In this document: positions 14,048-17,542 of the stretch, piece after piece | Numbering within the stretch: the stretch's first letter is position 1 | Layout: each line of letters starts with the position of its first letter | Assembly: GCA_964509675.1 (NCBI GenBank) | Contig: CAZDXC010000001.1 | Span: 115,973 to 179,972, forward strand | DNA from: Candidatus Woesearchaeota archaeon | Lineage (GTDB): Archaea > Nanobdellota > Nanobdellia > Pacearchaeales > GW2011-AR1 | Direction of reading: 5' to 3' | Length of the DNA stretch: 64,000 nucleotides | Notes under the pieces: generated by a model | Databases searched by the model: none | What the model was told of the DNA's origin: nothing | What the model saw: only the letters and a program-made list of their open reading frames with translations | Program-made: the position numbers and the translations under genes

Positions 14048-17000
14048 TTATTTATTCGTGTCTTCAACGATTTTTTTCTTTGCTATTTTCTTTTCTTCTT
14101 CTTTTTTTATTAATGGACCTACAACTTTAACCATCAAACCTGGAAGCCCGGTTCCAACAGGAACAGGCTGATTCAGCATTATGTTTTCTATGACACTGAC
14201 AAGTCTGTCTTTGCTTCCTTTTATTGTTGCATTGATAAATTGTTTTCCGGGAGTTTCAAATGTTGCCCTTGCCAAGATTGAAGATTTTTGTGCTATAATT
14301 CCCATTCTTGTAACTCCTTTTATTTCTCCTGTATTTGTCATGGCATCTGAAATGAGTTTTAGATGTCTCTCATTAATGTCCAATCCCTGCGTGTTTATTA
14401 CATTATAAATTTCATCCATTATTAATTGTCTTGCAACTTCTATTCCAAATGTGTCAGCAACTTCATACAAGTCATTTGAAATAACTCTGTCAGAATCAAC
14501 TTCTTTTAATTCGATTATTTTTTTCAAATTTGTTCCGAGAGTCATTATTATGTAATCTCTGTCTTTCTTAACTATAAGAATCTGCTTAATTCCCTTAATA
14601 CCAGAGATTATTGTTTTTTTTAGTTTTTCTTTAAGCTGATAAATTTCTTTAAAACTGAACTCAGAAGCGTTTAGAGTTATTGAATCTGATTTTTCCCTTG
14701 CTTTAAAGCCCAAATCATTCAGCCTCTCAACAACAGTCTTTATTGAACTGTGAGTTTGCCTTAATCCTGTTTTGTCAATTACTATTTCAATTGTCTTGTT
14801 GCTAAAATTGAGATTTATCTCAGAGGCAATTTCTCTTAATGTTACCTCTTTGATTTTCTCGGCAAAAACTTTGGCATTTTTTTCATTGTTGTATTCTTTT
14901 TTCAGGAAGATTTCCATTTTCGGAGAAGAAGGTTTTTTCCTTGCATCAAAAATTTCTATTAATCTTGGAAGTCCCATTGTAATCTGCATTTCCTGAACTC
15001 CTGCAAAATGGAATACATTCAATGCCATCTGAGTTGAAGGCTCTCCAAAAGACTGCGCTGTGACAATCCCTATCGCTTCTCCCGGATTAATTTGTTTTTT
15101 GAGATGCAGCTTTGAAACATCCATTCCATCATCCCCATATTTAAATTGTATCAGATTATTGTTGCTGTCTCTGACAGTTCCATCGTATTCTATTCTCAAA
15201 TCCTGCAAGGCATTTGCCAGTCTTCTGTACAAGTATCCTGACTTCGGCGTTCTTAATGCAGTATCCATGAGAGAATCTCTTCCTGTAATAGCTCCGAAAA
15301 AGAATTCATCTGGCCTTAATCCTTTTATAAAAGAACTTTTTATAAATCCCCTTGCAGCAGGAGTAAGGTCCCCCTGCCTGAAAAATGATAATGTTCTCCC
15401 ATTATATCCAATGTCAATTCTTTTTCCCCATAAAGCCTGTTGCCCCACACATGAAGCCATTTGAGTAATATTCAGAATATTTCCTCCTCCTCCGGATTTA
15501 ATCATGTGATTCACAGGATTTTCTTTGGGAAATTCTCTCTTGACAATTTCTCCTATCTTTGTTCTTACTTCATTCAGTGCCTGAAGTATCTTTATCTCTC
15601 TTGACTCTTCTTCTGTCTTTCCCGGAATTCTCTCAAGCTCGCCTTTATTGTAGCTTTCTATAATTTCTTCTGTTTTCTTCTCGGCTTTCTTTATTATTTC
15701 TTCTCCTGCATCAATCACGCTTTGATTCAAATCCAAATCTTCAACAGAAATTGTTATTCCCCTGTCTGACAGATATTTGACACCCAAATTAAACACTTTT
15801 CTTATTGTTTCAAATGTTTCATTTGTTCCGACTTTCTCATCAAGGACTTTTATAAATCCCCCGTCTTCGCTTCCGAATAATGTTTTGTCTATTTCTCCTT
15901 TAGTGACTTCTCCATTTCTTATGCTGACAGAATCATTAGAGAAATTTATTTTTGGAAGTATTAATGAAAACATTTCTTTTCCTGTTATGTTCTTTTTTGA
16001 TATTTCCTGATTAATGCCTGATTTGAAAAGGATTTGATTTGCATAATCATTTGAGAATTCCTCTTCTCCAAGAAGATAATTTCCTGTTATTGCGTCTCCT
16101 ATACATCCGATTAAATTTGTGTTATTCTTCGGAGAAATTAAATTTTTCTTTACATCCAAGAGAATTTTTGCTTCTGCCCTTGCTTCTTCTGTCTGCGGAG
16201 AATGTATGTTCATTTCATCCCCGTCAAAATCTGCATTATATGGAGTAACCACAGAAGGATGTAACCTGAAAGTTCTTCCTGGAAGCACCTTAACAAAATG
16301 GGCCATCAGGCTTCCTCTGTGCAAACTTGGATGCCTGTTGAATAAAACAACATCTCCGTCCTGAAGATGTCTCTCAACTTTATACCCCGAATCAAGTTCA
16401 TTGATTATTTCTTCTTTCAAGTCAGGAGTTATTTTTTTTCTCTTTCCGTCAGGTCTTATAATATAATTTGCTCCTGGATATTCTTCTCCCCTCTCAATTA
16501 ATTCTTTCAGTTTTTCAATATTCAAGTCAGTGACACTTTCTGCAACAGTAACTACCTTTGCAATTTCATAAGGAATTCCTACTTCATTGATTGATATGTA
16601 TGGGTCTGGAGAAATTACTGTTCTTCCCGAATAATTTACTCTTTTTCCAGCAAGATTTTTTCTTATTCTTCCTTCTTTTCCCTTTATTCTTTCCATAATT
16701 GTTTTTAATGGTTGTCCTGAACGGTGTCTTGCAGGAGGTATTTTTGCTACGCTATTGTCAAAAAATGTTGTGACATGAAATTGTAATAAATCCCACAAAT
16801 CTTCTATTATTACTTCAGGAGCTCCTGCATTCAGATTTTCCCAAAGTCTTTGGTTTGCTCTTATAATATCAGAAAGCTTATGAGTAAGGTCATCTTCGCT
16901 TCTCTCTCCTGATTCCAAGATAATGCTTGGTCTTACTGTTACGGGAGGGACAAGAAGCATAGTCAAAACAGCCCATTCTGGTCTGCATGTGGTTGGATTT

Positions 17001-17542
17001 ACACCAATTTTTTTCAATTCTTCGTTTGGAATATTAACGAGCATTTCTCTTATTTCAGTAGGAAAAAGTCTTGTCTTTCCAATGAAAAAACTTGTCGGCT
17101 TATCAAGTTTAATTCTTTCATGCACAGCACCACAATGCGGACATTTCTTTGAATCCTTTGCCTTTTTTGCTCTCTCGCTTGGAGTATATTTTTCCAAATC
17201 TTTGTCAGCAATCAAGAGTTTTCCACACTCTCTGCAAAAACATCTTAATGCCAGTTCAATTAAAGAGACATATTTCAAATGTATTATGGGTCTTGCCAAA
17301 TCAATGCTTCCAGGATGTCCCAAACATTCTTTCAGTCTTCCTCCGCATGTTCTGCATCTCACTCCCGGGTCTATCGCACCAAGACGTAAATCCATCAGTC
17401 CTCCGTCAACAGGATATCCATCTATATTATAAAGTTCAGGCGTGACTATCTTTGCAGCAGAGATTTTCTTGATGTCTTCTGGACTAAACAAGGCAAATCT
17501 TATTTCTTCTACTTTCTTCTTTATTGGTTTTTGTTCTATCAT
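14048..17542 (-). CDS. rpoA: DNA-directed RNA polymerase subunit A, a fused A'+A'' single ORF
   Basis: The N-terminal zinc clamp is [16 protein letters not shown] and the active site is [11 protein letters not shown]. The bridge-helix region is [34 protein letters not shown] and the A''-type trigger loop is [28 protein letters not shown]. All of these lie in one uninterrupted 1164-aa frame. Confidence 0.95.
   Translation of the reverse strand: [1164 protein letters not shown]

Follow-up and report, generated by a model that had tools for sequence, protein, structure and literature searches.

The question raised by a 64,000-nucleotide (nt) stretch of contig CAZDXC010000001.1 (assembly GCA_964509675.1, Candidatus Woesearchaeota archaeon), the whole of which is hereafter referred to as the window, concerns the gene for the largest subunit of the archaeal RNA polymerase (Rpo1, or A). 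In this window the A' and A'' parts of the subunit appear in one long open reading frame (ORF), and it may be asked whether this ORF is real and, if so, whether it represents an original unsplit gene or the product of a joining of two genes. Arguments on the root of Archaea and on the origin of eukaryotes have drawn on the A'/A'' split as a rare-event character, and unsplit A genes have been published for Thaumarchaeota, Korarchaeota and Bathyarchaeota, where they are regarded in the cited work as the primitive state (Da Cunha et al. 2017, PLoS Genet; PMC5484517). An earlier note made from the letters of the window (the original prediction) had called the split nearly universal in Archaea, which does not hold, since A is unsplit in these three phyla and also in several DPANN lineages.

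The reading favoured here, to which a probability of about 0.85 is assigned, is that rpoA of the window is a genuine Rpo1 gene of the Pacearchaeota-type DPANN archaea, in which rpoA' and rpoA'', ancestrally two separate neighbouring genes, were joined into one ORF. The gene itself is thus an ordinary and essential one whose arrangement is derived. The fusion is real and was already noted for Pacearchaeota in 2017, the main text of that paper giving the A gene one sentence as "a secondary fusion in Pacearchaeota" (PMC5484517). The segment loss, the rpoB re-fusion and the further fused DPANN lineages described below are not mentioned in that main text. The new details are thus a deletion at the position of the foot domain, the re-fusion of rpoB and the recurrence of fusion in DPANN, and they rest on a simple tree.

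A single reading frame for both parts of Rpo1

The ORF list and its translation give rpoA as one frame from ATG to stop on the minus strand, coding for 1164 amino acids (aa). Such a continuous A' plus A'' frame had been described in the original prediction without a strand, and the Pfam Rpb1 domains 1 to 5 are found in it in order (aa 8-297, 299-462, 467-603, 628-734 and 741-1089, the last match being to PF04998). The clamp zinc site, the NADFDGD motif and the bridge helix, which had likewise been assigned to this ORF, were located at C63, C66, C73 and H76, from aa 436 and from aa 741, respectively; 32 homologues show no change in the zinc ligands, and the catalytic motifs are invariant among the relatives. 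The trigger loop and the jaw follow in the same frame, as had been foreseen, with the trigger-loop string starting at aa 821, inside the PF04998 match. A trigger loop encoded elsewhere had been named as a possible refutation of the fusion; the one found lies within this ORF, and neither another trigger loop nor a second copy of A' or A'' was found in the window. The A'' part has no gene of its own, its frame being continuous with A' and free of any conserved internal Met.

Searches with curated models support the presence of both parts. The protein scores above the curated cutoffs of two NCBIfam A' equivalogs, NF006336 (aa 5-821; 1068.2 bits, cutoff 819) and TIGR02390 (1048.8 bits, cutoff 1042.55), and the A'' model TIGR02389 matches aa 809-1134 with an E-value of 1e-110 over profile positions 32-362 of 367. 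From end to end, all domains and motifs can be aligned with the Rpo1N and Rpo1C chains of Sulfolobus/Saccharolobus and Thermococcus/Pyrococcus (PDB 7OK0, 2WAQ, 4QIW and 8CRO), the operon context of which is also that of the window; in these organisms, however, the subunit consists of two polypeptides. Eukaryotic Rpb1 resembles the window protein in being a single chain in which the bridge helix is followed by the trigger loop, but it carries a foot of ~170 aa between the two blocks and a heptad-repeat C-terminal domain. RpoA of the window has neither; its C-terminal end is a short Lys/Glu-rich tail, and no YSPTSPS heptad repeats occur in its translation. The likeness of its layout to that of Rpb1 is convergent. 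An AlphaFold2 model of the whole protein as a monomer, calculated from a 32-sequence alignment, was too poor to be used (mean predicted local distance difference test score 50.4, below 50 at the junction; predicted template modelling score 0.28).

A protein search returned more than 120 clusters with 78-100% identity to the RpoA of the window, all of them 1148-1176 aa long. They originate from NCBI, JGI, ENA and Logan contigs as long as 777 kb, and the organism names attached to them are Pacearchaeota, Nanoarchaeota or plain archaeon, with a single cluster (P0068) named as a Patescibacteria-group bacterium. Species-representative genomes were also scanned, and each of the 80 loci obtained was checked for a stop or a frame change between the side of the bridge helix and that of the trigger loop. 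A is one ORF in 41 of the 41 Pacearchaeota-type loci (at least 57% identity to the RpoA of the window), a result that supplies the survey of relatives suggested in the original prediction. It is split in the 29 Woesearchaeota-type loci (50-56% identity), GW2011_AR15 (L069) included, and fused in three Bathyarchaeota loci (L063, L064 and L068; 41% identity), where it measures ~1282 aa. The closest sequences outside the fused clade are the split Woesearchaeota-type genes, with 52-56% identity, while the other fused forms show 41-47%. A sequencing error at the junction, which had been put forward as another possible refutation, can be excluded from these sequences, as the 41 species-level loci and the more than 120 clusters have the matching ORF.

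The clades are named here by the tree described below and not by NCBI labels, since the labels of metagenome-assembled genomes (MAGs) are inconsistent. Sequences labelled "Woesearchaeota" and "bacterium" are found inside the Pacearchaeota-type clade, in conflict with the RpoA tree, and the label "uncultured Methanosarcinales" on Woesearchaeota-type loci. Judged by its relatives, the window protein belongs to the Pacearchaeota-type clade.

Some loci of the scan show peculiarities of their own. An apparent single ORF spanning rpoB and rpoA in L019 is an artefact of a scaffold gap of 100 N. A lone in-frame stop separates A' and A'' in seven split loci (L037, L055, L056, L060, L062, L067 and L080); readthrough at such stops was considered and rejected, their frequency being about that of chance for adjacent genes and an ATG lying 1-4 codons downstream in 5 of the 5 inspected. 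In two split Woesearchaeota-type loci (L048:2895-5447 and L065:5546-8155), A'' measures 850-869 aa and has an intein with a LAGLIDADG endonuclease in Rpb1 domain 5.

The A'/A'' junction and its missing segment

Alignment to the solved archaeal chains and to yeast Rpb1 places the A'/A'' join at aa ~812-817, within the interval of ~800-850 in which it had been expected. RpoA aa 9-820 correspond to residues 4-868 of the 880 residues of Sulfolobus acidocaldarius Rpo1N and aa 813-1139 to residues 57-389 of the 393 residues of Rpo1C, and the same result was obtained with Rpo1N and Rpo1C of Thermococcus. Nothing in RpoA corresponds to the final 12-18 residues of A' or to the initial 52-56 residues of A'', the lost stretch being the C-terminal tail of A' together with the N-terminal helical part of A'', of ~55 aa.

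In the multiple alignment, a segment of ~70 aa is present in the split Woesearchaeota-type and the unsplit Bathyarchaeota sequences and absent from all the fused Pacearchaeota-type sequences. The junction of the window protein has 12 aa, and all members of the fused clade have 12-14 aa there; the corresponding lengths are 66-89 aa for the split Woesearchaeota-type loci and 85 aa for the unsplit Bathyarchaeota (L063, L064, L068 and P0123). Compared with the Woesearchaeota-type consensus, RpoA of the window lacks 96 positions in total. The largest gap, of 60 aa after aa 815, has a column occupancy of 0% clade-wide. A second one, of 17 aa, lies after aa 120 in the clamp head, where the second zinc motif has its loop; the residues concerned, which the Woesearchaeota-type and Bathyarchaeota sequences possess, are lacking in 99% of the Pacearchaeota-type clade. 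The remaining gaps are a few of 2-5 aa.

The shortfall of ~100 aa pointed out in the original prediction is explained by these missing positions (60, 17 and the small gaps). In total length, the fused protein of 1164 aa compares with a median of 1252 aa for the split Woesearchaeota-type pairs, a value that is slightly overestimated as each A' was read from stop to stop and not from its start codon; the solved pairs measure 880 + 393 aa in Sulfolobus and 906 + 391 aa in Thermococcus. The domain trimming suggested there is not diffuse, as most of the loss consists of one junction block of ~60 aa and the 17 aa of the clamp-head zinc loop.

In the alignment of RpoA with yeast Rpb1, a block ending at residue 881 of Rpb1 is followed directly by a block starting at residue 1052. 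The foot domain of Rpb1, which we take to comprise residues ~882-1051, is the part skipped, the exact domain boundaries of Rpb1 reportedly being those of Cramer et al. in 2001. By sequence alignment, therefore, the missing stretch sits at the position of the foot. Described as a module at the surface, the foot of Rpb1 shows poor conservation outside Pol II and takes part in the association with Rpb6 and Rpb4/7 (PMC5389574).

Origin of the fused gene

The direction of change was assessed with a neighbour-joining tree of 72 full-length A sequences, in which split pairs were concatenated and the junction columns were excluded by an occupancy filter; the tree was rooted on Bathyarchaeota and 100 bootstrap replicates were calculated. 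The fused Pacearchaeota-type sequences (36 loci and the window) form a clade with 100% support, which contains MAGs labelled Pacearchaeota. The split Woesearchaeota-type sequences, including Woesearchaeota AR15 (L069), form a clade with 99% support, and the two are sisters with 100% support, so that the nearest relatives of the window protein are split. Within the Pacearchaeota-type clade the state is uniform, every sampled member being fused with the short junction. Monophyly of all the fused DPANN A sequences was recovered in 0 of the 100 replicates. The simplest reading of these relationships would be a single fusion, accompanied by the deletion, at the base of the Pacearchaeota-type clade.

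In the split relatives the A' stop and the A'' start overlap or lie at most ~60 nt apart, mostly within ~10 nt. One in-frame deletion of ~200 nt could take out the stop of A' and the start of A'' together with the codons on either side and so bring about fusion and trimming in one step. A less simple route would consist of a loss of the stop and a subsequent deletion, and either route would have been taken once, at the base of the clade. The product would be one chain of ~130 kDa, as estimated from its length, with the same two-barrel core fold, and the segment lost would be a peripheral surface module that the enzyme could dispense with. Such a fusion would fix the stoichiometry of the two parts at 1:1 and spare one assembly step, and it would fit genome reduction or streamlining. 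Later, in the subclade of the window, rpoB'' and rpoB' would have been re-joined at the canonical split site, reducing the four large-subunit genes to two.

A number of points weigh against this account. The neighbour-joining tree was built from RpoA itself, in fast-evolving lineages and by a simple method. No fusion intermediate was found inside the Pacearchaeota-type clade, the one-step deletion being deduced from the end states, and fused forms that retain the segment occur elsewhere (P0128 and P0208), which makes the two-step route, stop loss and then deletion, equally possible. The A'' model TIGR02389 gives 370 bits, below its curated cutoff of 420.65, because the N-terminal 31 profile positions are absent from RpoA; going by the E-value and the aligned residues of Rpo1C given above, the A'' homology is nevertheless not in doubt. 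The description of the lost segment as a dispensable surface module draws on the Rpb1 alignment and on the literature statement on the foot (PMC5389574), and that RpoA is made and assembled as a single polypeptide is something we infer from the gene.

Among the competing explanations, the one that survives best, though it is improbable, is that the original unsplit A gene was retained here and that the relatives were split later. Unsplit A genes in other archaeal phyla have been argued to be ancestral, several other DPANN lineages have a fused A, and the phylogeny of DPANN is unstable. The unsplit Rpo1 of Thaumarchaeota, Korarchaeota and Bathyarchaeota is, like that of the window, encoded by one ORF for the whole large subunit. 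The proteins of Bathyarchaeota, however, retain the segment missing here, are ~120 aa longer than the RpoA of the window and are just 41% identical to it. The window protein shows no phylogenetic affinity to these ancestral-type lineages, grouping instead with DPANN and Woesearchaeota-type sequences; its clade is paired at 100% bootstrap with a uniformly split one and sits among DPANN lineages that contain split members. Retention would also require several independent splits at one site, and the neighbour-joining tree already points to a split A at the node that joins the Pacearchaeota-type and Woesearchaeota-type clades. The published view is that of a secondary fusion, and the case described in the main text of that paper agrees with the window in having a single A gene, in belonging to the same lineage and in being read as secondary (PMC5484517).

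A little less probable still is that the one ORF yields two proteins, by internal initiation or by proteolytic cleavage near the junction. Nothing direct speaks for it, the nearest hint being a Met (M807) just before the junction in the genome of the window. This Met lacks conservation, as no residue has a majority at its position in a consensus of 32 relatives; the residues that usually form the C-terminus of A' and the N-terminus of A'' are deleted, and throughout the clade the junction is short and conserved, with 12-14 aa. These features speak against two chains.

Horizontal acquisition of an already fused gene, from Bathyarchaeota, Thaumarchaeota, other DPANN or a virus, is very unlikely. 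Fused short forms do exist in other DPANN lineages, but the nearest sequences are the split Woesearchaeota-type ones, the fused sequences fail to group together in any replicate, their junction sequences differ, and the native operon rpoH-rpoB-rpoA-nusA-S12-S7 is retained around the gene. The chance that the ORF is an artefact of assembly or sequencing, or an accident of one genome akin to a pseudogene, is negligible, even with a source that is evidently metagenome-assembled and with DPANN bins being error-prone, as the matching ORF comes from four data sources besides the 41 species-level loci, an error cannot delete ~200 nt in frame identically across a clade, and the catalytic motifs are invariant.

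rpoB, other fused lineages and the gene neighbourhood

The gene for the second large subunit, rpoB, is also a single ORF in the window. All Woesearchaeota-type loci for which there are data have a split rpoB, as do the other DPANN loci L042, L056, L067 and L072 and three deep-branching members of the fused-A clade (L023, L029 and L033). In all the other members of that clade it is a single ORF, and these, with the window among them, form a subclade supported at 100%. According to the alignment, the join is seamless at the canonical split site, a linker of 2-15 aa standing in place of the stop, the spacer and the Met, and the RpoB of the window carries both a B''-like and a B'-like part. The single B of Crenarchaeota and Thermococcales is usually regarded as primitive. 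The single B of the window differs from it in being nested among split-B relatives, and because of this nesting it is probably a secondary re-fusion of B'' and B', later than the A fusion and not primitive. The layout with two large subunits described in the original prediction is therefore present, in the form of one rpoA and one rpoB, but the likeness to eukaryotes and bacteria that was drawn from it is derived and lineage-specific, since all four genes (B'', B', A' and A'') are split in the sister Woesearchaeota-type clade.

Fused and short A genes were found in four further loci, namely L043 (Altiarchaeota label, 1154 aa), L072 (Micrarchaeota label, 1170 aa), L042 (uncultured archaeon label, 1128 aa) and L079 (Aenigmatarchaeota label, 1171 aa). 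The other fused DPANN A genes either cluster with split relatives or stand apart, L072 and L042 grouping with the split L067 and L079 with the split L056 and L062, in both cases with a bootstrap of 100%, and the junction sequences differ between the fused lineages. Additional fused forms were obtained from a search of 1.84 billion cluster representatives; at the 50% clustering used, the whole Pacearchaeota-type clade is one representative, and the other matches are mostly eukaryote-length Rpb1-like proteins with a few fused short forms. Among these forms, P0122 falls into the L072 group, P0126 shares 83% identity with L079, and P0162 and P0210 are divergent and short. The inter-domain segment is absent from most of the other fused DPANN rpoA genes and is kept in P0128, a seven-member cluster whose contigs reach 127 kb, and in P0208.

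Taken from these sequences, the pattern suggests that the split or fused state of A has changed several times in DPANN. It is somewhat more probable than the contrary that the state of both large subunits changes repeatedly in this group, with the four genes of the Pacearchaeota-type archaea becoming two, the module at the foot position being deleted, and at least three more changes of A having taken place (in the groups L072/L042/P0122, L079/P0126 and L043). P0162 and P0210 may be further cases. A literature search returned no paper on recurrent rpoA fusions in DPANN and none on a re-fusion of rpoB, an absence that is no proof of absence.

A gene split at a shifted site was observed in L067 (2983-6582; Micrarchaeota label), where A'' begins ~12 aa before the trigger loop and A' has the rest of the tail; it could represent the re-split of a fused short ancestor.

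The features of rpoA, rpoB and their neighbours are collected in Table 1.

Table 1. Positions of the polymerase genes, their parts and the adjoining features within the window
Feature	Position	Strand	Basis
Ribosomal protein S7 gene	12181..12792	-	Pfam; conserved rpo operon
Ribosomal protein S12 gene	13056..13478	-	Pfam; conserved rpo operon
NusA-like KH-domain gene, directly downstream of rpoA	13578..13991	-	Weak KH_2 and KH_5 matches (E ~6e-4); conserved operon position
Fused rpoA (Rpo1), A'- and A''-equivalent parts in one frame	14048..17542	-	ORF, Pfam, NCBIfam, solved archaeal Rpo1N/Rpo1C chains
A'' (Rpo1C)-equivalent part (trigger loop, jaw, cleft), aa ~813-1164 and stop codon	14048..15106	-	TIGR02389; Rpo1C alignment
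Trigger loop, aa 821-848	14999..15082	-	Aligns with Rpb1 1052-1134 and with Rpo1C from residue 57
A'/A'' junction, aa 808-821; ~60-70 aa of split relatives absent	15080..15121	-	Alignments
A' (Rpo1N)-equivalent part, aa 1 to ~812	15107..17542	-	NF006336; S. acidocaldarius Rpo1N alignment
Bridge helix region, aa ~741-780	15203..15322	-	Aligns with yeast Rpb1 807-881, bridge helix included
NADFDGD catalytic Mg-binding motif, aa 436-442	16217..16237	-	Translation, alignment
Site of the 17-aa clade-wide deletion after aa 120 (second zinc motif loop, clamp head)	17180..17185	-	Consensus comparison
Clamp zinc site C63, C66, C73, H76	17315..17356	-	Translation; homologue conservation
Perfect tandem repeat, 33 nt x 2.9, filling the rpoB-rpoA spacer	17575..17670	.	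Unit TTGTTTTGTCTCGCAATGCGTATGCGTAATGTG on the + strand
rpoB (Rpo2), 1084 aa, single ORF	17673..20927	-	ORF, Pfam, B''/B' models
B''/B' junction in rpoB, aa ~485-492	19452..19475	-	B'' model aa 3-485, B' model aa 492-1082
rpoH (Rpo5), 64 aa, stop overlapping the rpoB start	20927..21121	-	Pfam Rpb5_C, E 2.9e-17

The order of the genes is rpoH, rpoB, rpoA, the NusA-like KH gene, S12 and S7, with the gene for elongation factor 2 further on. Many archaeal rpo operons have a gene for L30e between rpoA and the NusA-like gene; it is absent from the corresponding spacer in the window (13992..14047). The 33-nt repeat that fills the spacer between rpoB and rpoA is found nowhere else in the window and looks like a recent insertion or expansion, because in L001, a close relative, the rpoA ATG follows the rpoB stop at a distance of 2 nt.

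Some observations concern other parts of the window. A tRNA with the anticodon loop CUUUUAA (Lys, UUU) and a 62-nt intron adjoining the anticodon, at 21461..21596 on the minus strand, was found by Rfam (57 bits) and not by ARAGORN, while a tRNA-Leu at 5395..5482 was reported by ARAGORN and is not listed by Rfam at the gathering threshold. The region 23221..27789 on the minus strand holds a class II ribonucleotide reductase with a C-terminal TSCPD domain (24958..27789) and an adjoining ORF of 557 aa, the sole match of which is a weak one to ThyX (Thy1, E 4.6e-4). The G+C content dips to 0.26 at 4001..6000 and to 0.28 at 56001..58000, against ~0.33 elsewhere in the window, and in the latter interval the GC skew reverses as well.

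As a secondary and lineage-specific re-fusion, the single rpoA gene says nothing about a eukaryote-like ancestry of these archaea. Caution is due with annotation and marker-gene pipelines, which give the fused protein the name A' and may count A'' as absent from these genomes. Taken together with rpoB, itself re-fused, and with the fused genes of other DPANN lineages, it suggests that such events are less rare than has been assumed, and if the repeated changes are true, the split or fused state would change too readily and independently to be of use as a rare genomic change in rooting the archaeal tree. The Pacearchaeota-type lineage also provides a natural experiment, in which the enzyme apparently tolerates both the covalent joining of A' to A'' and the loss of ~60-70 residues at the position of the foot; under the reading of repeated changes, if true, the RNA polymerase of an archaeon would be able to function in the absence of the stretch usually found beside the A'/A'' split.

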